From: Oligoflexia bacterium
GTDB taxonomy: Bacteria > Bdellovibrionota > UBA1018
Direction: 5' to 3'
Assembly: GCA_014378465.1 (NCBI GenBank)
Contig: JACMNQ010000065.1
Span: 5,186-69,185 of the forward strand
DNA length: 64,000 bases
Part shown: positions 6,292-54,984 of the stretch, one piece after another
Layout: each line of letters begins with the position of its first letter
How positions within the stretch are numbered: the stretch's first letter is position 1
The notes under the pieces: generated by a model
The model's database searches: none
Told to the model about the DNA's origin: nothing
Seen by the model: only the letters and a program-made list of their open reading frames with translations
Translations under genes and position numbers: made by a program

Positions 6292-7011
6292 TTTCACGAG
6301 TTCCGGCGCGGCTTGCTTATAGGTCAGCCAGAGGTGGCGACTGGTGGTCTTGAGCCAGCCTCCCTTCTCGTATTTGCGAGGACTTGTGAGAAGGCAGGCC
6401 TGAATTTCACTCAGGGCGATACCTCTCTGGTGAGCATTCCAGATCAGCAGGTGGTCTTCACCGTAAGCGGTACCGAGAGGAAAATCCCCGAGTTCACGAA
6501 AAACCGATTTCTTCATGCACAGTCCCTGATCACCGAAGGGCATCTTGAAGTAGCGAGAGCGGATCAGAACGCCCAGGTCATTCAAGCGAGTCAGAGGCGA
6601 AGTGCCGGAGAAACGCAGCTTGAAATAATGAATCAAATCGGGATTTTTCTGGAGACTCACTTCGAGACCCATGAGGGTCTGAAGCGTGAAACGCGAGTCC
6701 GAGTGGAGGAACCAGACGAAATCACCCGTCGCTTTTTCCGCTCCGGCGTTCATCTGTTCCGCGCGGCCCTGCTTGGCCGTGATCCAGCGAACTGAACGCC
6801 CCAGGGCCAGAGTTTCGCTGATCAGACTGACGGACTCGGGCGCGAAATGTGATCCCACGAACAGAATTTCAGTCTTGAGTGGCAGATTGATGAGGTCTTC
6901 GATCAATTCCTTCCACGCGTTATCATGCGGACCGACCGGAATGACGACCGAAACGTTCTTCAGCGTGATTGAAAAATCCTGGGGGGACGAAGTTCTTGCA
7001 CTCTCAGTCAT
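6265..7011 (-). CDS. family 2 glycosyltransferase (small, single-domain)
   Basis: VVIPVGPHDN near the N-terminus and a DxD-like FLHSDSR motif. Overlaps the upstream radical SAM gene by 8 nt, suggesting an operon. Resembles glycosyltransferases found clustered with radical-SAM enzymes. Confidence 0.6.
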   Translation of the reverse strand: MTESARTSSPQDFSITLKNVSVVIPVGPHDNAWKELIEDLINLPLKTEILFVGSHFAPESVSLISETLALGRSVRWITAKQGRAEQMNAGAEKATGDFVWFLHSDSRFTLQTLMGLEVSLQKNPDLIHYFKLRFSGTSPLTRLNDLGVLIRSRYFKMPFGDQGLCMKKSVFRELGDFPLGTAYGEDHLLIWNAHQRGIALSEIQACLLTSPRKYEKGGWLKTTSRHLWLTYKQAAPELVKLLKKQSPR

Positions 7012-8515: not shown

Positions 8516-10780
8516 TCAGTACCGGCTCTTCATCAGAAAAGTGATGACTTCCTTCGCGCAGTTTTCGCAATAGCCGAGTTTGGACTTCATGTTCTCGATG
8601 GTCTGATGAGCCAGGGCGTCGCCTTCTTCGTTCATCTTTCCCGACTCCTTCTTCTCCTGTTCACTGCCGCCCCGGCCGTAGAACAGAAGGGCGTCATGCA
8701 TCTGTGTCAGTCGGGATTTCTGGGACTCGTAATAGTGCTTCTCGAGCTTGTGCCAGAATTCCGGAAAGACTTTGGCATAGCTCACGCCCTCGCGTGGGTG
8801 ATCCAGAGACCAGGCGCCCACTTGCGAAATGATGTTCTGACGGAAAGCGATCTGTTCGGCCGCGTCCGTGGGAGCGCCGACGATCTTTTCAAACTCGTTG
8901 ATGAGAGCGAAGTCGGGATCTTCCATCTTGCCGGTGATGGAGTTTTTGACTTTCTCCTTCTTGAGCACGAGCGCGATGTGCTGGACATACTTCTTCAGAA
9001 AATCTTCCCACTGCACGGAGTTGTAGAGACCGATGGAGTCCCTGACCTCGCGGTCAATCACGGTGAGGTACTCGTTTCGCACCGTATTGATGAAATCAGC
9101 GGAGTCGTGGTAGCCGTCCTTGATGTCCTGTTTGAGAAATTCGTATTCGCTCGTGTGTTTCACGAAATCTTCCATTTCACGAAGCACGGCGAGGGGAGAG
9201 AGGCAGGCGAATCCGGCATTTTGCGCGGCCCCGAAGAGGATCGACTTGATCTCGCGCGCCGAAGCCCCCATGCGGCCTTCGTAGTACGGGATGTTGCTGT
9301 ACTCTTCACGAAGTTTGCGGATGGAGGAGCGCAAAATCTTTCGATCTTCAGGAGAAAGCCCCATGGGCATTTCTCCCGTATCGTAGAGTTTCGCCTTTTC
9401 CAGCGGGGAGAGGTTTGAAATGACGGAGCTGATCTGATTGGGATAGCTGATGCCGTTGGGCTTCTTGAGGCGAGTGAGCACTGCCCAGAGGGCAAGTGCC
9501 CAGTCGGTGTGGGGAGTGACATGCTTTTCGGCTTCGACCTGCTTCAGTTCAGCGTGGTAGATTTCCTTCTCCTGGCTGACGGACAGAAGGTACGGCACGC
9601 GAATCAATTCAATGCGCGCTTTGAAACTCGTGAAATCCGGAAATTCCTTGAATGCATCCAACTGCAGTTCGTTGCTTGAGCCCAGCAGGCAGGTATCGAG
9701 GTAAGCGATGCTCGCTCCCACGTTGACTGAACCCGTCTCGCACGCGATCAGCAGGTATTTGTAAGTTTCGATCGGACGCTTCAGCAGATCGCTGTACTCG
9801 ATGATGCCGCGATTGCCATCCACCAGATCTCCGGTGAGCGTGAAAAGGTTCAGACTCTGGAGTGAAACGGGGAGGGAACTCAAGCTCTTGTTGTAGGAGA
9901 GCTGGTGATACTGGGCATCGACGTGCATCTGGGGCTCGATCGTGACGAGTCCTTTGCGGAAGCGGCGTGCGAAGTAGTAACGCTCGACCTGCACGTGCAT
10001 GAGGACTTTTCTGAAGTCTCCTCCATTGGCGTTGACGAGGGCATTGAAGATTTCCTTGCAACGGTGATTGAGATCGCCTTTGGTGAGGTACTGCGGGAGC
10101 GTTTCCCAGAGTTCATCGCACTTCTTCCTGCCCAGAAGTTTTTCAAGCAGCGCGCGGCGCTGCGCCTGCGGAATGAGAAGAAACGGATGATCGCGCATCA
10201 CGGAAGGAAGGCGCGCGGCGACTTCTTCATCTGGAAGTTTCGCATAAGTGGAAAGATTCGTGCTCTGGCGCTCTGAGTAGGCCCCCAGTCCCAGGCCACC
10301 CTTCGTGTAGCGCTCCAGAGGGAACACCCAGTTGAACGTGTAGAGACCGCCCTTGGGTTCATGGGAGTACTTCTCCATGCCGGCCATCATGCCCTGAATG
10401 AGCGTGCTCTTGGCGCTGCCGTTGGGGCCGTGGAGGAGCACCAGCTTGTTGTTGATGCCCTGGCGCGCGAAAGTGCGGAGGGTATTGTAGATCTTGTTCT
10501 GAACTTCTTCGTGCCCGATGACTTTTCTCGCAAGCTCAGTCTCGTCAAAGATCTTGAAGCGGGCATGAGGCTCACCCTTGTCCGCACCCGTGGATTCTTC
10601 CTTGCCGAAGTAGTCCATCATGTCGGCGGCGTACTGAGCGGAGCCTCGGAGCTGGCACTCCGGCTGTTCGGCCACCAGCTCCAGATACTCGTCGAAACTC
10701 AACAGGCGTCGGTTGCTTTCAAATTCGGTTTTGACCGCTTGTTCCACCCAACGCAAAGTATCCGGAGATTGTTTCGACAT
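8516..10780 (-). CDS. prkA: PrkA family serine protein kinase (AAA-like P-loop N-domain)
   Basis: 754 aa. Walker A LLHGPNGSAKSTL and overall PrkA-like architecture. GAGG RBS 6 nt upstream of the ATG. Confidence 0.85.
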   Translation of the reverse strand: MSKQSPDTLRWVEQAVKTEFESNRRLLSFDEYLELVAEQPECQLRGSAQYAADMMDYFGKEESTGADKGEPHARFKIFDETELARKVIGHEEVQNKIYNTLRTFARQGINNKLVLLHGPNGSAKSTLIQGMMAGMEKYSHEPKGGLYTFNWVFPLERYTKGGLGLGAYSERQSTNLSTYAKLPDEEVAARLPSVMRDHPFLLIPQAQRRALLEKLLGRKKCDELWETLPQYLTKGDLNHRCKEIFNALVNANGGDFRKVLMHVQVERYYFARRFRKGLVTIEPQMHVDAQYHQLSYNKSLSSLPVSLQSLNLFTLTGDLVDGNRGIIEYSDLLKRPIETYKYLLIACETGSVNVGASIAYLDTCLLGSSNELQLDAFKEFPDFTSFKARIELIRVPYLLSVSQEKEIYHAELKQVEAEKHVTPHTDWALALWAVLTRLKKPNGISYPNQISSVISNLSPLEKAKLYDTGEMPMGLSPEDRKILRSSIRKLREEYSNIPYYEGRMGASAREIKSILFGAAQNAGFACLSPLAVLREMEDFVKHTSEYEFLKQDIKDGYHDSADFINTVRNEYLTVIDREVRDSIGLYNSVQWEDFLKKYVQHIALVLKKEKVKNSITGKMEDPDFALINEFEKIVGAPTDAAEQIAFRQNIISQVGAWSLDHPREGVSYAKVFPEFWHKLEKHYYESQKSRLTQMHDALLFYGRGGSEQEKKESGKMNEEGDALAHQTIENMKSKLGYCENCAKEVITFLMKSRY

Positions 10781-15200: not shown

Positions 15201-15911
15201 TCAGTTCCACTGAACGGGAACTTGAGTGGACGGGTTGTTCGGATCTTCCGAGCGTTGAAGTTTGACGAATCCGTTCTGACGTCCGAACTGAAAGACGTCG
15301 CGAGTCACTTTCACGTCCTGCATGCAGTAGTCGATGATCTTCTGAATCTGGCCGGATTTCCACCATTCCACGGCCATGAGACCGTCGGCGGATTTTCCGG
15401 TGCCCAGTGTTCCGCGCGCCACATACTCGAGTTTCAGAAAGCGCTGGCGTGTCAGGGCTTCGAGATCGTACATGATGTCAAAGACGTCGAGGCGCTCAGG
15501 CTTCAATCCGTAAGGCACCATGACCGGGATGTCGAAGCCTCGGATATTATAGCCGATGACGAGGCGCTCTTCACAGAGTTCAATGAGCTTGGGGAGCTCA
15601 TGTTCCTGATAGGCAGTGTACTGATCCGTCTTGCTGTCATAAGCGCAGGCGATCGAAATGCCGAGCTTGTCCACATGGTCCCAGCCTCCGACGTCCTGCA
15701 CGAGTTTCTGCGTTTCCACGTCCACCACCAGAAAGTGTCGGTGCTTCAGAAAGAGACTCGAGGGAACCACGTCTTCAGAGAAGGGCACGCAGCTGCCATG
15801 GCGCCAGAACGAGGCATTGAGCTTGATGCGGATCCCTGAAGAACCCGAGCCCGTCGGCCCAGAAAGGGTTGGTGATGAAGTTGACGTGGGCGCTGCCCCG
15901 ATGATTGCCAT
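15201..15911 (-). CDS. RNase H-like 3'-5' exonuclease (DEDDy-type, PolB-exonuclease-like)
   Basis: Exo I LVVDVETQ, Exo II YNIRGFD, Exo III YCMQDV. The N-terminal ~60 aa are low-complexity, so the start is uncertain. Confidence 0.55.
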   Translation of the reverse strand: MAIIGAAPTSTSSPTLSGPTGSGSSGIRIKLNASFWRHGSCVPFSEDVVPSSLFLKHRHFLVVDVETQKLVQDVGGWDHVDKLGISIACAYDSKTDQYTAYQEHELPKLIELCEERLVIGYNIRGFDIPVMVPYGLKPERLDVFDIMYDLEALTRQRFLKLEYVARGTLGTGKSADGLMAVEWWKSGQIQKIIDYCMQDVKVTRDVFQFGRQNGFVKLQRSEDPNNPSTQVPVQWN

Positions 15912-15993
15912 GAAAAATCACCTTGGCTGTTCGGACATTTATTGTCAAGATGGCGTCAGGCACGTCAGGCCGTTACGCCACGCCAAAACTTCT

Positions 15994-17436
15994 ATGAAAA
16001 AACCATCAGAAAACCTCTCGTCCGCTATTGCTCATTGTGAAAAGAATTTCAGCACTTATCTCGAAGATTTAAAGGAACTCGCTCGCATTCCGAGTGTCAG
16101 CTTCTCAGGCTTCCCGGAGTCAGAAGTGAGGCGCAGTGCGCAAGCGGTCGCGAAGCTGCTGACCGCGCGTGGTTTCGAAAAAGTCGAGGTTCTGGAAATT
16201 CCAGGCGCGCATCCTTACGTTTATGGGGAGCGTCTCAAAGCGCCGGGTAAACCCACTCTTCTCCTCTACGCGCATCACGACGTTCAACCTCCCGGTCGCG
16301 AAGAGCTTTGGAAAACTCCCCCCTTTGAACCCACTCATCTTGAAGGTCCCGGCGGCGAGCGCCTTTACGGACGAGGTACGGCGGATGACAAAGCCGGAGT
16401 CGTGGTTCATGCTTCTGCAGTCGCGGCATTTCTGGATTCAGGCAGCGAGCTGCCTGTCAACGTCAAGATCGTGGTTGAAGGCGAAGAAGAAATTGGAAGC
16501 GGCTATCTGCCCGAGTTCCTGAAGACCTACCGTCACAAGCTCGATGCTGACATCATGGTCCTGACCGATACGACCAACTTTGATTGCGGAGTGCCGGCCT
16601 TGACCGTCGCTCTGCGTGGACTGGTGGGACTCGAGATTGAAGTCAGGGCCCTCACCAAGTCCGTCCATTCAGGAATGTGGGGCGGACCCGTGCCGGATCC
16701 TGCCATGGCTCTTTCCAAGATGCTCGCGAGTCTCGTGGACGAGCAGGGTCGCATCGCGATTCCTGAGGTGCTCGCCATGGTCAGACCTCTCGGTGATGCC
16801 GAAGCGCAAGAGATGAAGAAAATCCCGTTTCATGAGCCTGATTTCAGAAAACAGGTCGGCATGGTCGAAGGCTCTCATCTGCTCCGCGAAGGTCCCAATC
16901 CGAATGCGCAGATCTGGCGTTTTCCGAGTCTCACCGTGAATGCGATCCAGGCTTCTTCTCGCAAACAGGCCGGCAATATCATCAATGACACGGCCTGGGC
17001 GAAAGTCACGATCCGCACCGTGGCCGACATGGACTCGGAACGCACGATGGAGCTCCTGCAAAGTCATCTGAGAAAAGTGGCACCCTGGGGTGTCGAAGTT
17101 CATTTTGAAATCGAGTCTTCCAATGGCCCGTGGGCTCTGGATTTGAAAGCTCCGGGAGTCGAAGAGGCTCTGGGGGTCGCGATCAGCGCGATGAAAAAGG
17201 GATATGGTACCGAGCCGCTCCAGATCGGCTGCGGCGGCAGCATTCCCTTCGTCAAGCCTTTCGCCGACGCGCTCGGTGGGGCGCCCGCACTCCTCGTGGG
17301 AGTCGAAGATCCCTACACCAATGCACATGGCGAAAACGAAAGTCTCCTCATCAGCGATCTGAAGAAGGCATGCCTCAGTCAGATTCATCTCTTTTCAGAG
17401 ATCGCCGAGAAAATCTCACCCAAACGAAAGAGTTGA
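15994..17436 (+). CDS. M20 family metallopeptidase (dipeptidase / desuccinylase-like)
   Basis: LLYAHHDVQP, GRGTADDKAG and EGEEEIGS metal-binding motifs. Start chosen at MKKPSEN; the upstream extension is antisense to the exonuclease gene. Confidence 0.8.
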   Translation: MKKPSENLSSAIAHCEKNFSTYLEDLKELARIPSVSFSGFPESEVRRSAQAVAKLLTARGFEKVEVLEIPGAHPYVYGERLKAPGKPTLLLYAHHDVQPPGREELWKTPPFEPTHLEGPGGERLYGRGTADDKAGVVVHASAVAAFLDSGSELPVNVKIVVEGEEEIGSGYLPEFLKTYRHKLDADIMVLTDTTNFDCGVPALTVALRGLVGLEIEVRALTKSVHSGMWGGPVPDPAMALSKMLASLVDEQGRIAIPEVLAMVRPLGDAEAQEMKKIPFHEPDFRKQVGMVEGSHLLREGPNPNAQIWRFPSLTVNAIQASSRKQAGNIINDTAWAKVTIRTVADMDSERTMELLQSHLRKVAPWGVEVHFEIESSNGPWALDLKAPGVEEALGVAISAMKKGYGTEPLQIGCGGSIPFVKPFADALGGAPALLVGVEDPYTNAHGENESLLISDLKKACLSQIHLFSEIAEKISPKRKS

Positions 17437-17440
17437 CCTC

Positions 17441-18418
17441 ATGACGACAGCAACTGATTCACAGAACCCTTCCCATCTGGAAAACTCCGGCGATGCTCCC
17501 GAGCACCAGCCGAGCCTCGTCGAGCAGACTCTTCGAGAGCAGCGCGAATCCTGGCGCGAAATCTCTGAGCGCGTGTCCAGCATTTCAGGGCGTGAGCTCC
17601 CGCACGAATCTCCGAAGCGCATTCTGCTCTTTGGTCTCGGCAGCAGTCTCTTTGCGGCGCGACTTTCCGCTTTCGCGCTGATTCGCGAAAAAAGTCGGCA
17701 GCGCATCCCCGTGATCGCGTGCTCCAGCACTCGCATCGGCATCGACATCGTGCCTCAGCGTGGCGACTGGGCTTTCGCATTCACTCACCGCGGGGGAGCG
17801 GGTCCGACTCTTCAGGCGATGGAGCTCTGTGAAAAACTCGGCGCTTTCACCGTCATGGTCTGCGCTCAAGGCATTGAAGCTCCGGCCAGTGCAAGATTTC
17901 AGTTGCCCACGGTACCTTTGGAAAAAGTCGAACCCCACACTTCCGCCGTGACCGGCGCCATCTGCGCGGTGAGCACGCTTCTGCTCGGCAACAAGGCCGT
18001 CGAGGAATGGGACGCTCTTCGCAGTATCGGAACTCCTGATCTGGAACTCTACCGCAGACGCGCGGGGCTCGGGCCAACGATCCTCATCGGGGAGTGGGAA
18101 GGCGAATGGCTGGCACGCGAAGGCGCACTCAAAGTCATGGAAATGGCGCGACTCCCGATCCGCGCGTTCGGCAGCGAAGAATTCTTTCACGGCCCCCATT
18201 ACACGCTGACTCCTGAAGACCGCATCTGGCACATCTCCGTGCCGAAGGATCCCCGGAACGACACGATCGCGAAAATGAAACCTCATTATTCCATCGGCAT
18301 CTTCGGCGCGACTCCGCTTGCCTGGATCCCGGCTCTTGTCGAACTTCAGTGGCTGGCACTCGCCGTCGCGATCAACCGCGGAGTGGATCCGGATCTGAAA
18401 GCTCCGTCGGAAAGCTGA
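17441..18418 (+). CDS. SIS (sugar isomerase) domain protein
   Basis: Two SIS-like Rossmann segments (ILLFGLGSSLFAA ... FTVMVCAQG). Begins 5 nt after the M20 gene. Confidence 0.7.
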   Translation: MTTATDSQNPSHLENSGDAPEHQPSLVEQTLREQRESWREISERVSSISGRELPHESPKRILLFGLGSSLFAARLSAFALIREKSRQRIPVIACSSTRIGIDIVPQRGDWAFAFTHRGGAGPTLQAMELCEKLGAFTVMVCAQGIEAPASARFQLPTVPLEKVEPHTSAVTGAICAVSTLLLGNKAVEEWDALRSIGTPDLELYRRRAGLGPTILIGEWEGEWLAREGALKVMEMARLPIRAFGSEEFFHGPHYTLTPEDRIWHISVPKDPRNDTIAKMKPHYSIGIFGATPLAWIPALVELQWLALAVAINRGVDPDLKAPSES

Positions 18419-18452
18419 CTTGGAATGAAAAAAGCCCGGACTTGCGGCTTTC

Positions 18453-18839
18453 TCAGAAAAAGAAGGAGAACGCAAGCGGAGTGATGGCGACGGCGCCGAG
18501 GGCGCTGGATTCTGATCGGTTTCCCGCGGTGGCGGTGATGAAACCAATTTGTGGAGAAACATAGAAAGCGTTTTCGATGTTGTCGACATTGAAGAAGTTG
18601 AAAGTGGGTCCGACATTCAGGTTGAACGCCGATGCATTGATTGAGCCGGTCGCATAGGCCGCGGAAGTACTGAGCTGAATTGAAGAAGTGAGGAGGCGAG
18701 AGTACCCGATGCTGATCTTGAAAGTGGATTCGCCGCTCTGGAAAATCAGGCTCGAAGTGGTGCTGCCATCAAGCTCATTGAGCTGGCTCGTGGCCGCGTG
18801 TGATGCCCTTGACGCGTAGTTGCGGTATCTCCCATGGTG
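18453..18839 (-). pseudogene. truncated paralog of the adjacent outer-membrane beta-barrel gene (no start codon, no signal peptide)
   Basis: The minus-strand frame is open for 128 codons (HHGRYRNYASRASHAATSQLNELDGSTTSSLIFQSGESTFKISIGYSRLL...PLAFSFFF*). It aligns to residues ~30-184 of the 19030..19584 gene and ends in an OMP-like FFF. No ATG/GTG/TTG in frame, which explains its absence from the ORF track. Confidence 0.5.
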
Positions 18840-18899
18840 TCACACTTCGTTTCATTGCCAACTGAAAAGACCGATCAGAGGGAGCTCTCTGGAAACATT

Positions 18900-18948
18900 C
18901 AGTTTACTGGGGTAAGCGTACACGGTGTACGCTTACCCCAGTAAACTG
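18900..18948. repeat. 49-bp perfect palindrome (24-bp arms, single central G)
   Basis: cAGTTTACTGGGGTAAGCGTACAC g GTGTACGCTTACCCCAGTAAACTg. Lies between the intact OMP gene and its truncated paralog. Confidence 0.85.
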
Positions 18949-19003
18949 TACTTTTCTCAGGCCCCGTTCCGCGGTTGGGCCCGTTCAAATGTTGAGCCTC
19001 CCA

Positions 19004-19043
19004 TTCAAAGAAAGAACGCGATGGCGCGTTCAAAGAAAGAACG
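19004..19043. repeat. 15-bp direct repeat x2 (TTCAAAGAAAGAACG) spanning the OMP stop codon
   Basis: Copies at 19004-19018 and 19029-19043 separated by 10 bp. The second copy encodes the C-terminal ...TFFL* of the OMP. Confidence 0.7.
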
Positions 19044-19584
19044 TGAAGGCGAGTGGCACGACCGCGGTTCTCAGATCCGTATTGAAGTAATCGCTCGATG
19101 AGAAGCGTTCTGAGAGCGTGAGGTAAGGAGCGTATGACACTGAGTCATTCACGGCGAAGCGTTTTCCAAAAGTCAGAATGCCGCCGAAAGTGGCAGCCGA
19201 CGTCCGATTGCTCACTGCCACGAAATAAATCTGAGGGAGGAGAAAGAAGGCATTGCCAAGCCGGTCGGTGTCGGCAAAATTGAACGTGGGACCGGCTGCG
19301 AGAGTGAAGGATGTCGTCGTGTTCGACACCCCGGAAGAGCTGGACTTGACCGTACCTATCCCGAGATCGAAGTTGCCCGTCAGCTGAATGGACGGAGCGA
19401 CGAGCCGCGAATAACCCAGAGAAAAACCGAAAGCGGTATCGCCACTTTGAAAGACGAGTGAACTGCGCGAGCTGGCGTCGAGTTCATTGAGTTCGCCGAG
19501 TTCGCCGAGTTCAGCGGCACGTGCAGGGTTGCCGAACGCGAAGAGAGCAAGGAACAGGATGGTTCTCGAAGAAGTTTTCCTCAC
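19030..19584 (-). CDS. outer-membrane beta-barrel protein (small porin / OmpA-N-like)
   Basis: Signal peptide, alternating hydrophobic beta-strand pattern and C-terminal ...PLAFTFFL. The N-terminal (ELG)n segment is encoded by GAGTTCGCC repeats. Overlaps the rmuC start by 4 nt. Confidence 0.55.
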   Translation of the reverse strand: MRKTSSRTILFLALFAFGNPARAAELGELGELNELDASSRSSLVFQSGDTAFGFSLGYSRLVAPSIQLTGNFDLGIGTVKSSSSGVSNTTTSFTLAAGPTFNFADTDRLGNAFFLLPQIYFVAVSNRTSAATFGGILTFGKRFAVNDSVSYAPYLTLSERFSSSDYFNTDLRTAVVPLAFTFFL

Positions 19585-20927
19585 AGCGGAAATTTTTCCT
19601 GACCGCTCTGTGCACTGGGTTCAATCGTGTCTTCGCCCTTGGCTCTGGGTGGCGGGAGTTCCGCCGTCCCGTCCGCTCCTCCGAGTTCGGGAGGTTCACC
19701 TGCTTCACCGACGAGGCGGTACACACTGGATTCATATCTGCCGAGATGAGTGTTTGCCGTTTCGAAGGCTTCCTGCGCTTTCTTGAGGCCTTTTCCGATG
19801 TCTTCGAATTTGCGCTCAAAATGCTCGAAGTGGCGGCGAGCTTTTTTGATGTCGCCAATCGTCTTTTCAACTCCGCGGGACATGTCATAGTATTCCTGCG
19901 CCATCGTGACCGACCGAAGTCCCATGGCAAGCGTATTCGGAGAAACCGGATAGACTTTGAGTTTGGTGATGTCCTCAAAGAGTCTGCCGTTTCGAATCAC
20001 TTCAAAGTAGAGAATTTCGCTTGGGAGAAAAAGCATCGCCATGTCAGTCGTCCCGTGGTCCGGACGAATGTACTTGTCAGCGATGGACTTGGACTGAGTG
20101 CGGATGAAAGTTTCGAGCGCTTTTCGCGCGACTTCAAGCATCGCCGGATCCTGGGATTCGAACAGGGGGAGGACCTGTTCACGCGGAAACTTGCTGTCGA
20201 TCGGAAGGACCTGTCTGGCCATCTTGACGACGGCGTCCACTCGCTCCGGCGAGTTGGGTACGACCGCATACTGCAGCTCATACCCACCCGGAGGCAGAAA
20301 GTCCGCAAGCAGTCTTTCGAGAGTCGCTTCGCCGAAGCCCCCTCGCAGATGCGGGAGTTTCAGAAGACTGTTGAGATCTGAAATGGACTGACCCACCACG
20401 TTCAGGGACTGCAGCTTGAGTTCCGCCGCCTGAAGATGTTCCTGCACCTTTTCAAAATGCTTGAAGCCTTCCTTGAGATTCTCATTGAGCTTGGTCTCGA
20501 CACTCTTGCCGATGTTCTCGAGTCGCGTTCCGACCTGCAGCTCCAGGGACTGGAAACGACCTTGGAGCGCTTCGGTAGTCTTGAGGAGTCCGGTTTGCAG
20601 TTCGGACCTGCCTTGGGCGAGGGTCCGGTCGATCCGTTCCTGAGCTTCAAGAAAGTGTTTGTTCAGGCGTTCTGTCGTACTCTCACGGCTTTCTCCGACC
20701 ATACGAGTCATTCTTTCGGTCAGGTCGAGTATGGGCCCCTGCAGGGTGTGTCCCATCTGGCTCTGAAACGTCTGTCCCATGGATTCAATCATTTGAGCGA
20801 GCGAGGCTTCTGAAAGTCCGTTAAAACGGCCCTTCAGCCAGATGAACAGGAAGACGAGAGCGACAAGCGCCAGCCCGAGGCCAAACAGAATGATTTCGAT
20901 GAGGAACGCAGAGACGTCTGAATGCAT
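19581..20927 (-). CDS. rmuC: DNA recombination protein RmuC
   Basis: N-terminal TM helix, long coiled-coil region and conserved C-terminal RmuC core (...FLPSEILYFEV...PNTLAMGLRSV...). Confidence 0.85.
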   Translation of the reverse strand: MHSDVSAFLIEIILFGLGLALVALVFLFIWLKGRFNGLSEASLAQMIESMGQTFQSQMGHTLQGPILDLTERMTRMVGESRESTTERLNKHFLEAQERIDRTLAQGRSELQTGLLKTTEALQGRFQSLELQVGTRLENIGKSVETKLNENLKEGFKHFEKVQEHLQAAELKLQSLNVVGQSISDLNSLLKLPHLRGGFGEATLERLLADFLPPGGYELQYAVVPNSPERVDAVVKMARQVLPIDSKFPREQVLPLFESQDPAMLEVARKALETFIRTQSKSIADKYIRPDHGTTDMAMLFLPSEILYFEVIRNGRLFEDITKLKVYPVSPNTLAMGLRSVTMAQEYYDMSRGVEKTIGDIKKARRHFEHFERKFEDIGKGLKKAQEAFETANTHLGRYESSVYRLVGEAGEPPELGGADGTAELPPPRAKGEDTIEPSAQSGQEKFPL

Positions 20928-20986
20928 TTCACGGCTTTAGCATGTCGAGCATTGCCTGACAATCCGGGGCGAGGTAAGGTCGGCGC

Positions 20987-21661
20987 ATGGAATTGTCTTC
21001 AGCTCAACCGTCCGGAAACCCATCGAACTTGAAATCGTCTGGTCGCGGACCCGGCAAATATCCAGACAGTATCCGTCTCTTCAAGAGCGACTTCCTCGAG
21101 CGCTTCACGCACGTCCATCCCATCATTCCACTGGTGATGTGGACGCCGGTCATCACGTATTTGATCTGGCACTCTTTTGCAGTGGACCACCTTTCATTTG
21201 CAACCGTGGCGGGACTCGGTCTGGCAGCGCTGTTCGTCTGGACTTTCGCGGAATACACGCTTCACCGTTTCGTCTTTCATCTGAAGCAGACCACTCCTGC
21301 ACGCACGCGCCTGGCTTTCATCATTCATGGACTGCATCACGATGATCCGGTGGACGCCTCCCGCCTCGTGATGCCGCCTTTGCCCGGGCTGATCCTCGCG
21401 GCTCTGCTGTATTCCCTTTTTCGCGGGCTGCTCGGGCCAGTACTCGTCGAGCCGTTCTTCGCCTTCTTCATCGTCGGCTACCTCTGTTACGACTACATTC
21501 ACTTCTCCGTGCACCACTTCAATCCGAAGACCCGCGCCGGGAAATACCTCAAAGCCAGTCACATGCGACATCACTTCGTAAGTCATGAAGCCCGCTGGGG
21601 CGTGAGCTCCCCACTCTGGGATTACGTTTTCGGGACGGTTCATCCTCCCAAAAAGACCTGA
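20987..21661 (+). CDS. fatty acid hydroxylase / sterol desaturase superfamily membrane protein
   Basis: Three histidine boxes (HRFVFH, HGLHHDD, HMRHHF) within four TM segments. Confidence 0.7.
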   Translation: MELSSAQPSGNPSNLKSSGRGPGKYPDSIRLFKSDFLERFTHVHPIIPLVMWTPVITYLIWHSFAVDHLSFATVAGLGLAALFVWTFAEYTLHRFVFHLKQTTPARTRLAFIIHGLHHDDPVDASRLVMPPLPGLILAALLYSLFRGLLGPVLVEPFFAFFIVGYLCYDYIHFSVHHFNPKTRAGKYLKASHMRHHFVSHEARWGVSSPLWDYVFGTVHPPKKT

Positions 21662-21664
21662 GTC

Positions 21665-22640
21665 GTGACCGGACGGAAAGTCTTCTCCTTCCTCATCGTG
21701 GCGCTCTTTCTGTACATCGCTCCGCCACTTTTCATACCCGTGGCATTCGGGGCGATTTTCGCTGTGCTTTTCTTTCCTGCCTTTGAGTTCCTGCAGCGAA
21801 AAAAGGTGAAAAGCTCGTTTGCCGCAGCTCTGATCAGCCTGCTCGTCACTCACGTGTTTCTTCTGCCTTCAGCTCTTCTGCTCTTCGTCGGTGCACGGAC
21901 CGGGCTTCAGCAGCTCGGAGGCCTTCGAGATGTCCCGATCGTCAACCCTGGATCCGGAGGGGGAGCTGGACACCCGGGCTTCTTTGAAAATCTGGTCAAT
22001 ACTCCCGGTCTGCACGGGCTCTTCGTGAGCCTGTCGAAATCCTTTCCAGTCGAAGTCGAAGAGCTCGTTCACACGGCCAGCGACCTCGCCAAGGGAGTAT
22101 CGCTGCGTTTTGCCGATTTTCTCGGAGATCTAGTCACACGCCTCCCCGTCATGATCATGGGAATGGTGATCATGGTCCTGAGTACCCTACTTCTTTCTCG
22201 TCGATGGAAAACGACTCACTCAGTGTGTGCGCGCCAACTCAGTCTACGACTCAGTCCAGACTGAACGCCTGATTCGCGCTTTCGCCGGAATGTGCCGTTC
22301 CGTCATTCTGGCGACCGTGATTTCAGGCTTCGTGCAGGCCTCGATCTTTTCCCTCGTCTACATGGGGTTCGGATTGGGCAACGTCGGTCTCATCGCTTTC
22401 CTCGTCTTTCTCTGCTCTTTCATCCCACTGATCGTCGCCGCCTTCGTGGGCGTGATCGACAACTTCATCCGTCCCGCAGTGTTGCGCGGATCAGCGAACC
22501 TGCATCCGCTTCTGGCTTTCGTCGCGGCCTTTGGAGGACTTCAGGTCTTTGGCTTTTCGGGCGTGTTTCTGGGGCCGATCATCGCGGGGATGTTCGTCAT
22601 CACGGTCGAGAATCTCCTCAGCAAATCAGAGCCCGCCTGA
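21665..22640 (+). pseudogene. AI-2E family transporter (PerM/YhhT-like) interrupted by a +1 frameshift near 22180-22195
   Basis: ORF 21665..22264 encodes the N-terminal half. The 0-frame is open from 22182 (VPYFFLVDGKRL...) and continues to 22640. The two halves join cleanly if one C of the CCC run at 22185-22187 is removed. May be a sequencing error or a genuine pseudogene. Confidence 0.6.
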
Positions 22641-22659
22641 ACCTTCTTGAAAAAGAGCT

Positions 22660-24456
22660 TCAGGAAAAGATCTTGCTGATCAGACTTTTCAGCATCCCGG
22701 GCTTCTTGGACTTCGAAGCGTTCGCGGTCTGAGTGTGTTTCTTGGCAGCATGGGCTGATGTCCCTGCTGGCTTTGCAGCGGTAGCCGACTGTGATGTCCC
22801 GTCGGCAGTGCTCTTTGAAGATCCGTTTGACCCGCCGTTTGAAGGGGCGGGAGCACCGCCATCCACGGGAGCAGTTTTGTAGAAAGTGCGAGGATTGGGC
22901 TGCGCAGGAGGCTGATGATCCGCTTTCTTCGCTGAAGTTTTCTTTTCAGGGCGTCCTTCACCTTTGGATTCGTTCTTCGCTGGTCGATCCAGGCGGCTCG
23001 AGCCATCGCCGCGAGGGGAGGTCGGATCCGCTGAAATTGGGGCAGAGGTCTGTGCAGCGCCCGCAGCACGAGGGCGAATCCCCGTCGATGGAGTGCCCGG
23101 TGCTGGAGAAGCGCCGGCAGCGCGAGGCTGGGCCCCGTCTTCAAATTTTCTGGGGGCCCCGCCGCGACCACCGCGAGAGGAGCCATTTCTGGATGAGCCT
23201 TCACCGGAGCGGGAACCGCCGCGATGACTGCGTCCACTGGATTCGCCGTCTCCCGAACTGGCAGAAGGGGAGGCTTCTGCGTATTCCGCTGGAATTTCCT
23301 TACCCAGGATCTTGTGAATCTCGCCCAGGATCTTGCGGTCCTGAGGAGTGACGAAGCTCGTGGCCTTGCCCGAGAGATCCGCGCGTCCCGTACGACCGAT
23401 GCGGTGGACGTAGTCTTCAGGATCCATGGGCAGATCGTAATTCACGACGTGAGCGATGCCATCGACATGAATGCCGCGGCCTGCAACGTCAGTCGCGATC
23501 ATGATCCGGTATTTGCCTTCCTTGAATTCAGCCAATGCCTGCTCTCGGTGCGATTGCATGCGGTCGGAGTGGATGTAAGTGGCGTCATAGATGCCAGCGC
23601 TGTGGAGCGATCTCCAGACGCGGGTCGCTTTGTCCTTGGAGCGCGTGAACACGATGATACTGCCCGGCTCTTCACGAAGAAGGCGCCTGAGTTCACGGGT
23701 CTTGCTCTCTTCAGGCATGTGAAGAAGCCGCTGAGTCACGGATGTGGATGCGGAATTGAGTTTACCGATCGCTACCGTTTTAGGGTTCTTTAAAATCTTC
23801 TTGGCCAGGTTGGTGACCGACGTCGCCATGGTGGCGGAGAACAGAAGAGTCTGCCTCTTGGCCGGCACGTCCTGCATGATGCGGGCAAGCTGGTCGGCAA
23901 AGCCCATGTCGAGCATGCGATCCGCTTCGTCCAGAACCACGACTTCAATGTAGTCGAGCCAGATGTTGCCGCGGTCCAGATGATCGCAGAGGCGGCCCGG
24001 AGTGGCGATGATCACCTGGGGGTAAGTGCCGAGCGCGGCGACATCGATTTTCATGTCAATTCCGCCGATGAGCACGACTGAGCGCACTTTTCGCGGAGCA
24101 CCGAACATTTCAAGCGTCGCTTGAGTCTGCTGAGCCAATTCACGAGTGGGGGCGAGGATCAACCCGAAGGTTCCTTCACGCCCCGCAAAACGGTCGACCA
24201 TCGGCAATACGAAGGCTGCCGTCTTGCCGGTCCCGGTCTGAGCGGAAGCGATGAGGTCGGTTCCTTCCAGAGCGATGGGAATGCCCTCGGCCTGAACGCC
24301 ACTGGGGGTTTTGAAGCCTGCTTTTTCAATCAGCAGAAGTGCTTCAGGGGAGAGTCCCAACGAGTCCCAGCGGGGATTCGGAGCAAGTTCAGCCGTTACG
24401 GCAGCGGGAGAGGACGATGGGGTCACTAGAGAGTCAATTGGCGGCTTTTCTTCCAT
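22660..24456 (-). CDS. DEAD-box ATP-dependent RNA helicase with RGG/low-complexity basic C-terminal tail
   Basis: Q-motif, AQTGTGKT, PTRELA, DEAD-box (VVLDEADRML), SAT and HRIGRTGR motifs. About 200 aa of G/R/S/P/A-rich tail. Confidence 0.85.
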   Translation of the reverse strand: MEEKPPIDSLVTPSSSPAAVTAELAPNPRWDSLGLSPEALLLIEKAGFKTPSGVQAEGIPIALEGTDLIASAQTGTGKTAAFVLPMVDRFAGREGTFGLILAPTRELAQQTQATLEMFGAPRKVRSVVLIGGIDMKIDVAALGTYPQVIIATPGRLCDHLDRGNIWLDYIEVVVLDEADRMLDMGFADQLARIMQDVPAKRQTLLFSATMATSVTNLAKKILKNPKTVAIGKLNSASTSVTQRLLHMPEESKTRELRRLLREEPGSIIVFTRSKDKATRVWRSLHSAGIYDATYIHSDRMQSHREQALAEFKEGKYRIMIATDVAGRGIHVDGIAHVVNYDLPMDPEDYVHRIGRTGRADLSGKATSFVTPQDRKILGEIHKILGKEIPAEYAEASPSASSGDGESSGRSHRGGSRSGEGSSRNGSSRGGRGGAPRKFEDGAQPRAAGASPAPGTPSTGIRPRAAGAAQTSAPISADPTSPRGDGSSRLDRPAKNESKGEGRPEKKTSAKKADHQPPAQPNPRTFYKTAPVDGGAPAPSNGGSNGSSKSTADGTSQSATAAKPAGTSAHAAKKHTQTANASKSKKPGMLKSLISKIFS

Positions 24457-25357: not shown

Positions 25358-27295
25358 TTGACACAAGGTGCTGATCTTGATTCAATTCTGTCCATGGTAA
25401 AAAAAGCGGACAGCAAAGCTGCAGCAAAAAAAGCAGCACCCAAAGCCTCATCCACTCCTTCAGCAAAGGGAGGCGCGGCTTCAGAAACGAAAGGCGCCAA
25501 GGCTTCTCCAAAATCTGCTGGTTCTGCTGCCAAAAAGACTGCAGATGCCGACACGGATGCTCCGGTACGGGCTTCCAAAGCTTCGAAGTCGATCACGACA
25601 TCGAGCACTGCCGAGTACTTCTCGAAGAATCTTCAGCAAGTTGGATTCTCTTCACAGGTCAAAGCGGTTCTCACGACGCTCAAGGAAGCCGTCGATAATG
25701 CCCTGGACGCCTGCGAAGAACATGGTTTTTTGCCTGAAGTTGAAATCTGGGTCGAAAAGATCGGCGCAGGCTCCCTCAAGAATTCAGATCAGGTTCGCAT
25801 CCGAGTTCTCGACAACGGTCCGGGCATTGATCCGGATGACGTTCCCAAAGTTTTCGGCGAATACCTCGCTTCTTCAAAGTTCGGTCGCGGGCGCTGTTCA
25901 CGTGGACAGCAGGGGATCGGGATTTCCGCGGCCACCACCTGGGCGCAGTTGACCAATGCCACTGGGGCTCGAGTCATCACCAAGACTCCGAAGATGCGCA
26001 AGGCGATGTCCTGCACCGTCGAAGTGGACATCAAGCACAACAAAGGCGTGTTGAAAGACCGCGAGATGATTGAATGGGACCGCGAAAACGGAACATCGGT
26101 CGAGTTCGTGATCGATGGACGCATTCAGCTGAACGGCGAAGCCGGCCTCATCAACTACCTCACGGGCACCACGCTCGTGAATCCGCATCTCACTCTCCAT
26201 TCCAATCTTCCGGATCTCGGTCGTCAGACCGTGGAACGAGTGACTCAGGAAATCCCCGCGATCCCTGAAGCCGTCGAACCTCATCCTCACACGATGAAGC
26301 TGGGTGAATTCATTGCGCACTCCCATCTCTTCGGACGTGTGAAAGTCGGAGCCTGGCTCAAGAAGGGCTTCTCCCGCGTGAACGAAGGCACTCTCAAGGA
26401 CCTCGTCAAAGCGGGCATCAAGGCTTCACTCCTTGAAAAGTCGGTCGATGGAATGAATGAAGTCGAGTTCAAAGACCTCTTCACGAAGATCCAGAACATT
26501 CAGCTCATGGCGCCTTCCACGAAGTCAGTTCTCTCAATCGGTGAAGAAGCCCTCGCCAAGAGCATCAAGCGTCTGGGCGCAGTCGACTTCTTCGCAGTCG
26601 TGACCCGCAAGCCGACCATCTGCGATTTCAAACCCGTCGAAGTCGAAGTGGCGGTGGCCCGACTCGAAGACCGCGCGATGGAAGCGGACGCTCCCGTGCA
26701 GGTTCTTCGTTTCGCCAACCGCGTGCCGCTTCAGTTCGACAAGGCAGCCTGCGCGATCGTGCAGGCCCTGACTTCAGTGAACTGGAGAGCGTACGGAATC
26801 TCGCAGCCGAAGGAAGCTCTGCCTCAGGGTCCGTACATCATCGCGGTCAGCGTGGTGTCGCCTTTCATCAAATTCAAGAACGCCTCCAAGGAAACGGTCG
26901 ATGCTTCGGACGAACTGGTCGAAGAGATTCGCCGTGCGCTGATCCAGGCGGGACAACGCCTTTCCAAGCACATCCGCAAGGAAGACAAAGCGAATGATCT
27001 GGAAGAAAAACTTCGCCACATCGAGCAGTTCTGTCCAATTCTGGTCGATGGACTCTGCAGAATCACCGAAGCCAGCGAGGCTCGCAAGAAGCGCGCGGAA
27101 GATGGACTGGTCAAACTTCTCGGACGGGACACTCGCGTCGCGGAACAGGAACTTGCCCATGCTCATGTCTCTCTCGAAAAAATGACCGCCGCTGAAAATG
27201 CGGACCCTTCGCTGGCCGGCACCAAAAAAGGTTCAGGCAAGAAAAACGCAGAGAAAAAGAAGTCCTCCAAAAAAGAAGCTGTAGCAGCGGAGTAG
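25358..27295 (+). CDS. top6B: type IIB DNA topoisomerase VI subunit B (GHKL/Bergerat ATPase) with Lys/Ala-rich N- and C-terminal tails
   Basis: Bergerat-fold motifs EAVDNALDA (N-box), VLDNGPGI (G1) and GRCSRGQQGIGISAA (G2), then a transducer region. The track start at 25358 is TTG; the ATG at 25394 (MVKKADSK...) is more likely. N-tail AAKKAAPKASSTPSAKGG..., C-tail KKGSGKKNAEKKKSSKKE. Confidence 0.8.
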   Translation: MTQGADLDSILSMVKKADSKAAAKKAAPKASSTPSAKGGAASETKGAKASPKSAGSAAKKTADADTDAPVRASKASKSITTSSTAEYFSKNLQQVGFSSQVKAVLTTLKEAVDNALDACEEHGFLPEVEIWVEKIGAGSLKNSDQVRIRVLDNGPGIDPDDVPKVFGEYLASSKFGRGRCSRGQQGIGISAATTWAQLTNATGARVITKTPKMRKAMSCTVEVDIKHNKGVLKDREMIEWDRENGTSVEFVIDGRIQLNGEAGLINYLTGTTLVNPHLTLHSNLPDLGRQTVERVTQEIPAIPEAVEPHPHTMKLGEFIAHSHLFGRVKVGAWLKKGFSRVNEGTLKDLVKAGIKASLLEKSVDGMNEVEFKDLFTKIQNIQLMAPSTKSVLSIGEEALAKSIKRLGAVDFFAVVTRKPTICDFKPVEVEVAVARLEDRAMEADAPVQVLRFANRVPLQFDKAACAIVQALTSVNWRAYGISQPKEALPQGPYIIAVSVVSPFIKFKNASKETVDASDELVEEIRRALIQAGQRLSKHIRKEDKANDLEEKLRHIEQFCPILVDGLCRITEASEARKKRAEDGLVKLLGRDTRVAEQELAHAHVSLEKMTAAENADPSLAGTKKGSGKKNAEKKKSSKKEAVAAE

Positions 27296-27305
27296 GAAGC
27301 ATCAC

Positions 27306-28454
27306 ATGGCAATCAGACCCGATCAGGAAATTCCCAAACTCAGCAAGGAACTCTGCAACAAGCTCCTGTTGGATCTTGAAAAAGCGAAACGTCCGGTCCT
27401 CTATGCGACCAAATGCTCGCTCGACAACGCGCTTTACAATCACAAGGTGGGGTACCTCACTCCCGGACCGAAGAAAGTGGCCACTGAACTGAACGTCAGT
27501 TCGGTGAAGAAGATGTCGCGCGCGATCTTCATGCTTGAGATCATCCTGCGCAACATTGACAGCGGTGGTGTGAACACGAAGCGCGAGTTGTACTACATGA
27601 GCAAGGGTGAAATTAAGCACAATTCGATCCTGAAGCCTCTCGACTTCGGCGATCAGGATGAATCTGATGGAACCATCGATTTCATCTGCGAGCTCCTTGA
27701 ATGTTACCGCGAGGACCTGAACTGTTACGCAAATGACCGAGGCGGTCAGACTTACTCCCAGCAGCTCGTCGTGACGGAAACCCTCCCGGATGGTGACACT
27801 GCCGTCATCGATCTCGGAAAGCTCGGAACGACTCCGTTTCAGCCCAAAAATCGTCCCCAGAATCTCAAGCTCAAAGCGAAGGAAAAGATCGATTTTTGCC
27901 TGATCGTCGAGTCCGAAGGTACAGCCAACACTCTGGTCGCCAATGGATTCACGAAACGCCATCCCTCGATCCTGATGGGTGCGCAGGGCGTTCCATCCAA
28001 TGCGGTTCGCGGTTGGTGCAAGCTGATTCAGGATCAGCTCAATATCCCGCTCTATTTCTTCGGCGATCTGGATGCGTACACGATGCAGAACATCTTTCGC
28101 ACGCTCAAGGCCGGCTCTGCCGCGTCCCTGATCCGAAATTCCGATTACTCCGCGCCGGATGTCAGATTTCTTGGGGTTTTGCCTGAAGACATCAAGAAGT
28201 ACGACTTGCTCGATTATCCCGTGAAGGAAAACGACGCGCAGGAAGTCCGCGCACTCAAGAAGGCGCAGGATGCTCTCAAAAACGATCCCTTCTTTCAAGA
28301 CAAGCGCAACAAAGGCCTCACCGAGATCCTCAACTGGCTCCTCAAGAACAAAAGACGTTGTGAGCAGCAGGCTTTCTTCACCGTCAATCCTCGTGATCCC
28401 CAGATGCCTGAGAAGATCATCATGGAGAAGATCAAAGCCGGGAAATTCGTCTGA
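27306..28454 (+). CDS. top6A: type IIB DNA topoisomerase VI subunit A (Spo11/Top6A; 5Y-CAP + Toprim)
   Basis: Catalytic-tyrosine motif RELYYMS, Toprim acidic motifs LIVESEG and FFGDLDAY. Begins 8 nt after top6B, the same B-then-A order as the archaeal operon. Confidence 0.8.
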   Translation: MAIRPDQEIPKLSKELCNKLLLDLEKAKRPVLYATKCSLDNALYNHKVGYLTPGPKKVATELNVSSVKKMSRAIFMLEIILRNIDSGGVNTKRELYYMSKGEIKHNSILKPLDFGDQDESDGTIDFICELLECYREDLNCYANDRGGQTYSQQLVVTETLPDGDTAVIDLGKLGTTPFQPKNRPQNLKLKAKEKIDFCLIVESEGTANTLVANGFTKRHPSILMGAQGVPSNAVRGWCKLIQDQLNIPLYFFGDLDAYTMQNIFRTLKAGSAASLIRNSDYSAPDVRFLGVLPEDIKKYDLLDYPVKENDAQEVRALKKAQDALKNDPFFQDKRNKGLTEILNWLLKNKRRCEQQAFFTVNPRDPQMPEKIIMEKIKAGKFV

Positions 28455-54355: not shown

Positions 54356-54984
54356 TCGGTCAATCGCTCAAAGCTCTCATGAGCGGAGTTGCAGAGGTTT
54401 TTTTCCTGCGCCGGATGGGCCTGCACGAATCGCTTGAGAGTTTCCGTGAAAGCCTTCCAACGAGGCCCTGTTTCCGCGCCGTAGATGGAAAAGTAATGCA
54501 TCGCTGTCGTTCCCTGAAGTCCCAGAGTCTTGGAGAGGTGGTTGCTGATGATGCGCCCTCCGAGGCTTGAACCTTCGATGACGTACAGAAAGCCCAGGCG
54601 CTGCGCCGGGGTTTCGAGGGGAGGCAGATCCTTGCACCAGGAGAAATCCGCGATTTCCCGCTGCGCGAAGCCCAAGGTGATCAGGTCGTGAAGGATTGCA
54701 GGGGCCCTGATGCGTGCGGGGTAAGAAAGCTCCGTGAGCCAGGGGTCTTGTTGCAGTCTGTCAATGGCGGAAAGCCTGGCCTCCTGGGGGACGAGGAAAG
54801 TGTAGAAGCGGCTGAGAAGTTGACCCAGCTCCCCATGGGAAAGGTCTGGCGACATCAGGAAGGCCAGTCGGGACTCGATCTTCAGGTGTGACGACTCCGT
54901 ATGGACCTTGATCCTGCCCAGAACGGTATCCACGCGTTCAGCAGCAATGGGAGCTACTTTAGAAGCCTGGTTTTGTAGTGACAT
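54337..54984 (-). CDS. bphO: heme oxygenase (biliverdin-producing, BphO-like)
   Basis: About 215-aa all-helical protein with proximal His region (TESSHLKIESRLAF). Immediately upstream of bphP with a 19-nt overlap. Assignment rests mainly on context plus weak motif match. Confidence 0.55.
   Translation of the reverse strand: MSLQNQASKVAPIAAERVDTVLGRIKVHTESSHLKIESRLAFLMSPDLSHGELGQLLSRFYTFLVPQEARLSAIDRLQQDPWLTELSYPARIRAPAILHDLITLGFAQREIADFSWCKDLPPLETPAQRLGFLYVIEGSSLGGRIISNHLSKTLGLQGTTAMHYFSIYGAETGPRWKAFTETLKRFVQAHPAQEKNLCNSAHESFERLTEWVAPR

Follow-up and report, generated by a model that had tools for sequence, protein, structure and literature searches.

A perfect 49-bp palindrome and a related hairpin in intergenic spacers of an Oligoflexia bacterium: candidate copies of a lineage-specific, REP-like element

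REP elements are defined by a conserved tetranucleotide, GT(A/G)G, at the 5' end with a short palindrome after it, and they modulate transcription and mRNA stability (PMC3686654). In the REP/REPIN systems of Enterobacteria, Pseudomonas and Stenotrophomonas the stems are imperfect and 8-9 bp or shorter, and copies number tens to hundreds. Since these elements were described, hairpin repeats at gene ends that influence transcripts have been a known phenomenon. They are mobilised by RAYT tyrosine transposases, and the cognate RAYT (Y1 transposase) gene has the repeats on its flanks and is typically present as a single copy in a genome. Other small palindromic or MITE-type repeats are the Correia/NEMIS elements of Neisseria, ERIC of enterobacteria, RPE of Rickettsia and SMAG of Stenotrophomonas. 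Elements of the Correia, ERIC and RPE types are 100-150 bp long and bounded by terminal inverted repeats and, in many cases, target-site duplications (TA for Correia), and SMAG carries a GTAG head. For Bdellovibrionota and Oligoflexia, our literature search returned no description of a palindromic repeat. Here we analyze a long perfect palindrome (M1) and a related hairpin (M2) in a 64-kb stretch of DNA from an Oligoflexia bacterium, referred to as the window, and compare them with these systems and with ordinary terminators.

M1 is a 49-bp palindrome whose arms, complementary at 24/24 positions, flank a central G at 18924 (Table 1). An initial reading of the DNA from its letters alone (the sequence-only reading) had reported this structure, and we verified it both on the letters of the window and in an independent assembly. 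By our estimate, ~1e-9 perfect 24-bp stems would be expected by chance in 64 kb, and the 23-mer arm is found at two places only in the window, with 0 expected from shuffles. By surveying hairpins over the whole window we found three with a score of at least 11, among which M1 is top by far with a score of 24. The palindrome extends outward imperfectly, the plus strand reads TACTTTTCTC right after this extension, and homology between the arms past 32 nt is not above that of shuffled controls. For M1, the predicted folding energy is -42.5 kcal/mol for the RNA (z ~ -10) and -26.6 kcal/mol for single-stranded DNA. With a stem two to three times the usual length, M1 is, as had been claimed, stronger than a normal terminator, and its context is also as described, between an intact gene for an outer-membrane-type protein (OMP) and a truncated paralog (OMP').

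Table 1 Features of the window discussed in the text, with coordinates counted from its first letter.
Feature	Coordinates	Strand	Description
M1	18900-18948		CAGTTTACTGGGGTAAGCGTACAC-G-GTGTACGCTTACCCCAGTAAACTG; conserved core 18909-18939
M1 imperfect outward extension	18892-18956		32-nt arms, 91% complementary, two mismatches; GAAA...TTTC ends
M2	38778-38816		GAAAGGGGTGAGCGAACAC-C-GTGTCCGCTCACCCCTTTC; 18/19 pairs; second-strongest hairpin of the window
M20 peptidase gene	15658-17436	+	Ahead of the SIS gene
SIS-domain gene	17441-18418	+	Converges on rmuC; conserved flank of the variable junction
OMP' pseudogene	18453-18893	-	Paralog of OMP, 39% aa identity, E = 9e-23; signal-peptide remnant starts 7 nt from M1
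Small terminator-like hairpin	19014-19031	-	GAACGCG-ccat-CGCGTTC, then TTTCTTT; overlaps the OMP stop codon; -9.8 kcal/mol
OMP gene	19030-19584	-	Intact, 184 aa, signal peptide, outer-membrane beta-barrel-like, C-terminal PLAFTFFL; start overlaps the rmuC stop
rmuC	19581-20927	-	Lies upstream in the rmuC-OMP unit; conserved flank of the variable junction
Small ORF	38476-38730	-	Conserved, 84 aa, lysine-tailed, MEKTRRIELIQRSLGLRHKLKV..., no Pfam match; downstream of M2
Aconitase gene (acnA)	38860-41727	-	Upstream of M2

Perfect palindromes can also be generated in metagenome assemblies by chimeric reads or misjoins, and a related MAG (L031) holds a 107-nt perfect palindrome of doubtful origin. 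That M1 is such a fold-back chimera, with no biological existence, is nevertheless barely credible. Its flanks differ between the two sides and are collinear with the expected genes, and by reasoning its non-self-complementary central base makes all k-mers of at least 26 nt unambiguous. Furthermore, the identical palindrome is present in the independent Logan assembly of SRR9661224 (contig L001), which matches window positions 17499-23926 at 99.94% identity with 4 SNPs, all outside the palindrome, so that an artefact of a single assembly is excluded for M1. M2 is likewise unchanged in an independent Logan contig (L127) that differs from the window by SNPs elsewhere. The palindrome of the related MAG (positions 6658-6764 of CAYIHX010000074.1) has 51-nt perfect arms, lies near or within an M20 peptidase region, and could be either an assembly fold-back artefact or a genuinely long palindrome. 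A separate observation concerns coding potential: the symmetry of M1 places a GTG-initiated ORF inside the palindrome on each strand, at 18923 (-) and 18925 (+), the first eight residues (MYAYPSKL) being common to both, and gene calling on L001 annotated a 36-aa ORF over half of the palindrome.

M2 lies ~20 kb from M1, 43 nt past the aconitase stop and 47 nt ahead of the ATG of a small conserved ORF. M1 and M2 have a 31-nt core in common, GGGGTRAGCGNACAC-N-GTGTNCGCTYACCCC, in the same register around the 1-nt centre, with a match at 13/15 positions per arm and 26 of the 31 positions invariant. We estimated the probability that one of the two other hairpins would match in register so well by chance at ~4e-6. 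The differences between M1 and M2 are mirrored in both arms, so that what is preserved is the pairing and not the sequence: at arm position 6, M1 has A:T where M2 has G:C, and both sides of three outer pairs are changed as well, although covariation between n = 2 independent sequences has little statistical weight. The only mismatch in M2 is A.C on the plus strand and G.U on the minus strand, which is the sense strand of the flanking genes, and its predicted folding is -33.8 kcal/mol on the minus strand versus -29.7 kcal/mol on the plus strand. The G.U pair gives a slight indication that pairing matters for the minus-strand transcript. The flanks of M1 and M2 have no homology above shuffled controls, and an apparent outer motif of the two, GTTTA(A)CTG / AGT(T)AAAC, carries no statistical weight.

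The sequence-only reading had proposed a search for additional copies, treating a single-copy palindrome with transcript 3' ends mapping right after it as the mark of an unusually strong bidirectional terminator; run on the window, this search returned one related copy, M2, and the palindrome is thus not single-copy there. A covariance model built from M1 and M2 scores the two at ~65 bits and, with filters off, finds no further copy in the window, where everything else is at or below 12 bits. The same model found no M1- or M2-like copy in 39 RmuC loci of related genomes or in contigs L121-L126, and the ~5 kb of extra flanking sequence reached via Logan contigs holds none either. On 80 aconitase loci it gave one weak match of 27.8 bits (L055, positions 8841-8889), and 1.4 Mb of related loci contain no core match apart from this hairpin. 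The pattern GGGTNAGCGNACACNGTGTNCGCTNACCC had 0 matches in 185,579 species genomes and 0 in JGI metagenomes, and the looser pattern GGGGTNAGCGNACACNGTGT had 0 in IMG/VR viral contigs. No match was returned by BLAST of 18880-18970 against phages and plasmids, and Rfam over the window gave no family at gathering score, with sub-threshold matches to miRNA precursors (generic hairpins) only at M1 and M2. Six-frame translations of M1 and M2 matched nothing at E <= 10 among 5.8 billion proteins, an approach too insensitive for peptides of ~15 aa. The L055 hairpin (Ga0256830_1003826), TCAAGGGGTCAGAACAC[15 nt]GTGTTCTGACCCCTTGA, is terminator-like, lies between convergent PilZ-like and ClpB(-like) genes, and has GGGGT.AG..ACAC in common with M1 and M2; we judged 27.8 bits on a distant metagenome contig to be insufficient and did not count it as a family member.

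A symmetric core with this many invariant positions could also be the operator or architectural site of a dimeric DNA-binding protein with half-site GGGGTRAGCGNACAC, in which case M1 and M2 would form one regulon, each upstream of a minus-strand ORF. The placement of M2 ahead of the conserved small ORF and of M1 just upstream of OMP' agrees with such a role. However, the half-sites here, at 15-24 nt around a 1-nt spacer, are to our knowledge far longer than those of known operators, and the mirrored differences, together with a G.U pair on the transcribed strand only, point to selection on pairing. In addition, M1 has a pseudogene downstream of it, both sites are missing at orthologous positions in relatives with the same genes, and a promoter scan found nothing at the palindrome. 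The dimeric-regulator operator, which was among the candidates initially put forward, is therefore very unlikely.

We then considered the genes on either side of M1. The OMP protein (GenBank MBC7692829.1, H7222_13795) has a weak Pfam match to OMP_b-brl. A word-based search of 5.8 billion proteins returned the protein itself as the sole match, and HMMER, run in full on 1.84 billion representatives, detected ~25 remote homologs, most of them 160-200 aa long (range 113-238 aa), in which the motifs GPTxNF, GKRF and PLxFSFxF are conserved. The gene is real and encodes a rare small protein of outer-membrane type. A 15-nt direct repeat, CGTTCTTTCTTTGAA, is present at its 3' end on the minus strand, at 19045-19031 (last OMP codons and stop) and, 12 nt downstream, at 19018-19004; the terminator-like hairpin at the OMP stop, with its 7-bp stem, is formed by the two copies jointly, and the repeat looks like a small tandem duplication of the 3' end of the coding sequence.

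OMP' has two in-frame TGA codons, at 18854-52 and 18842-40, with no in-frame ATG, GTG or TTG after the second, and an internal deletion of ~40 aa in which the conserved 'GKRF' beta-hairpin is gone. It is still open over 128 codons, which suggests that its inactivation is probably not ancient, and its stop is 34 nt from the convergent SIS stop. The alignment of the OMP and OMP' proteins reaches the signal peptide (SRTILFLALFA versus SRELPLIGLFS) and ends 7 nt short of the palindrome; M1 adjoins the 5' truncation point of OMP', where the ribosome-binding site and start codon are missing. We found no coding remnant 5' of M1, which would be the sign of a simple insertion into an intact OMP'. Since the remnant is on the downstream side alone, a signal peptide split across M1 was rejected. 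The GTG at 18923, which the palindrome contains in the OMP' frame, was likewise rejected as the true start because of the two in-frame TGA codons.

To place the junction in its lineage, we compared 39 RmuC loci of related Bacteriovoracaceae/Oligoflexia MAGs, with RmuC 60-79% identical. The order FA-hydroxylase / RmuC -> <- SIS / M20 is conserved over these loci. At ~12 of the 39 the convergent stops abut or overlap, with a gap of -12 to +12 nt and no hairpin, and the remaining ones hold 0.5-6 kb of unrelated accessory genes; none of the 39 has an OMP homolog or an M1-like hairpin. The RmuC/SIS convergent junction is a hotspot for accessory genes, and inserts observed there (L002-L040) include an unrelated small OMP (L020), Cys-rich secreted proteins (L020, L035), an aminotransferase-like gene and an AAA ATPase. 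Window positions 15.2-27.8 kb are collinear, at 70-75% DNA identity, with the nearest relative found (L124/L125), whose RmuC/SIS spacer of 275 nt (L124 7254-7530, L125 4181-4457) is unrelated. That spacer has four separate hairpins, including a 12-bp stem, CGCGAGTGTAAG-cttaaat-CTTACACTCGCG; hairpins accumulate at this convergent junction in more than one lineage. Since the junctions of relatives are abutting or unrelated, the 1162-nt (1.16-kb) insert of OMP, M1 and OMP' is lineage-specific content of a variable junction. In E. coli, the neighbouring gene rmuC keeps inversion at short inverted repeats in check. A functional link between it and M1 was rejected as proximity only, rmuC being at the same place in all relatives, which are without the palindrome.

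The position of M1 exactly at the 5' truncation boundary of OMP', in a junction whose length among relatives ranges from -12 nt to 6 kb, raises the alternative that M1 is the by-product of a rearrangement (an inverted duplication or template switch that truncated OMP') or its agent (a hotspot for breaks, of the cruciform or SbcCD type, within a variable island); the perfect arms would also suggest a young structure. But M2 carries the same core at an unrelated, non-rearranged locus, which implies that the sequence pre-exists as an element. The longest exact DNA match between OMP and OMP' is 10 nt, which leaves no substrate for homologous exchange between them. Moreover, a palindrome of 49 bp is below the length at which strong instability occurs in E. 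coli, and M1 is stable over two assemblies that differ by SNPs. We regard the rearrangement reading as improbable, and the earlier suggestion of a cruciform hotspot that promotes exchange between the OMP copies did not hold up, given their 39% protein identity, the short exact match and an M2 locus without OMP genes.

At the M2 site, the spacer between acnA and the small ORF is 129 nt here, compared with gaps of 5, 15 and 19 nt, without a hairpin, in three relatives that are among the closest (aconitase 71-73% identical). Two other relatives have a 1.9-kb insert between the two genes. The small ORF is 53-62% identical in these five relatives and is predicted to be an uncharacterised partner of acnA in this lineage. 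Both M1 and M2 appear to be insertions relative to related genomes, with a polarity that is read from relatives of another genus at 65-80% protein identity.

M1 resembles Rho-independent (intrinsic) terminators in being a stem-loop 3' of a gene in a convergent setting, with an A-rich lead (GAAA...TTTC) and a T-rich tail on the plus strand. M1 could thus be a plain, unusually strong (bidirectional) intrinsic terminator that separates rmuC-OMP from M20-SIS with no mobility, the likeness of M2 being a by-product or an old local duplication. A terminator scan of the plus strand flags M1, with a 20-pair stem and then TACTTTTCTC, a tail that fits a U-tract; the transcription units on its two sides converge, several ordinary hairpins occur in the corresponding junction of the nearest relative, and M2 has the GAAA...TTTC ends typical of bidirectional terminators. 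In contrast, on the minus strand, that of the upstream genes OMP and rmuC, the tail (AATGTTTCC) does not fit. M1 has no proper U-tract there (AAUGUUUCC), which makes termination on that strand doubtful, and in M2 the TTTC belongs to the stem.

Other differences from terminators concern context and kinship. The OMP stop already has a canonical small terminator-like hairpin with a T-tract, between OMP and M1, and the M1 stem is far longer than such stems. Its sequence is common to a second hairpin within a conserved gene pair, and agreement in register at 13/15 bases per arm is unexpected for unrelated terminators. M2, in turn, is inside a pair of genes that are 5-19 nt apart in the closest relatives, where no terminator is expected. 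Nor are terminator-like hairpins a general feature of this genome: counts found in the window versus expected from shuffles were 28 versus 24, 18 versus 21 and 26 versus 22, without enrichment, which indicates that M1 and M2 are not merely the strong end of a common terminator population. Taken with these points, the plain terminator is an unlikely explanation, though less so than the other alternatives.

In several respects M1 and M2 are like REP/REPIN elements: they are short palindromic DNA in intergenic spacers, including within operons (M1 between the OMP stop at 19030 and the OMP' pseudogene, M2 between the aconitase stop at 38860 and the ATG at 38730), they are lineage-specific with sequence-related copies in which changes preserve the hairpin, and their expected effect is that of a 3' hairpin by which upstream mRNA would be stabilised or read-through attenuated. 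They differ in that neither has an unpaired 5' GT[A/G]G head; GTAG or GTGG is absent beside both, every base is inside the palindrome, and the conserved GGGGTRAGCG is entirely paired in the stem. Their stems of 19-24 bp are nearly perfect, and the window holds 2 copies and no RAYT gene. Neither Y1_Tnp nor any other transposase domain was found in ~57 window ORFs scanned with Pfam, although a RAYT is typically one per genome and its absence from 64 kb therefore decides nothing. As the arms of M1 are not themselves palindromes, M1 is not a REP doublet. Of the three candidates first put forward, the REP/BIME-like element has the best support, at the level of behaviour, with a related second palindrome and both copies as extragenic insertions; with the defining head missing, the stems far longer and nearly perfect and no RAYT in the window, membership of M1 and M2 in the REP family is not supported.

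Like Correia/NEMIS, ERIC, RPE and SMAG, M1 and M2 are non-coding hairpin insertions beside or in gene ends, of a kind that can inactivate or remodel neighbours and alter transcript processing. Unlike these elements, they are 39-49 bp long, wholly one hairpin, without the GTAG head of SMAG and with no recognisable flank duplication. A MITE-type element does not fit, there being no direct repeat at M1 or M2, unrelated flanks and no IS transposase in the window. A protelomerase target, of the telRL type known from linear prophages and plasmids as a single palindrome beside a protelomerase gene, does not fit either, as the context is chromosomal and housekeeping, collinear with relatives, and there are two related copies. 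No phage, plasmid or protelomerase domain was found, and no match in phage, plasmid or viral collections.

Several other genes of the window are of interest in their own right. Topoisomerase VI subunit B (Topo-VIb_trans, HATPase_c; 25358-27295, +) is adjacent to subunit A (TP6A_N, Toprim; 27306-28454, +), and L123 and L124, two contigs of relatives, conserve the pair. Topo VI occurs mainly in archaea and plants, and finding it conserved in a lineage of Oligoflexia may merit attention. An AI-2E family transporter is encoded by two overlapping ORFs (21665-22264 and 22227-22640, both +), split also in L001, whereas a single gene of 342-348 aa encodes it in relatives; a frameshift has probably turned it into a pseudogene here, near that of OMP'. 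A bacteriophytochrome histidine kinase (PAS_2-GAF-PHY-HisKA-HATPase; 51974-54984, -) is encoded directly downstream of a heme oxygenase gene and followed by a hybrid PAS kinase/receiver (49855-51630), and the three genes make up a predicted light-sensing operon.

The explanation that we place first, with confidence evenly divided for and against, is that M1 is a lineage-specific, REP-like inserted palindromic element that forms an RNA hairpin and acts as a 3'-end barrier or insulator, where 'family' means n = 2 copies known from a 64-kb window (plus ~5 kb of flanks). Under this explanation, the element would have been copied or inserted into spacers between same-strand genes. Transposase, RAYT, integrase and phage genes are all absent among the ~57 window ORFs scanned against Pfam, where the context is housekeeping, and neither a target-site duplication nor a shared flank marks the element ends at M1 and M2. 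The boundary at 18900 suggests that arrival of M1 there replaced the 5' end of OMP', which would then have decayed by two stop codons and one internal deletion. Co-transcription with rmuC-OMP on the minus strand would produce a very stable M1 RNA hairpin (about -42 kcal/mol) that may block 3'-to-5' exonucleases and cause RNA polymerase to pause or terminate. On the plus strand, the palindrome with its T-rich tail may also stop the convergent M20-SIS transcript. M1 would thereby keep the two converging units apart, in much the way of enterobacterial REP elements, and M2 would have the same role between aconitase and its small downstream ORF.

A more speculative extension, which we consider a long shot, is that M1 and M2 are the visible tip of an undescribed class of self-templating perfect-palindrome elements in Oligoflexia, in which one arm is copied by fold-back (snap-back) synthesis at insertion. 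Fold-back synthesis would explain the mirrored substitutions and a 3-nt indel (AAA/TTT in M2), as well as the perfect youngest copy and the absence of a REP-type head and RAYT. Some machinery distinct from RAYT and IS200-family transposases would spread such elements, and gene inactivation would be possible, as with OMP'.

M1 and M2 are a new lineage-specific example of an extragenic palindromic repeat or terminator-like hairpin, and no new principle is required so far. The core motif (pattern GGGGTNAGCGNACAC with 2-3 mismatches) is a countable marker that could tell a repeat family from two odd terminators. If our preferred explanation of an inserted REP-like element is true, it would add a lineage-specific palindromic repeat for the phylum Bdellovibrionota/Oligoflexia, and would provide a concrete case of such an element landing at a gene start, with a duplicated small OMP then decaying, while a second element splits the normally contiguous aconitase/small-ORF pair.
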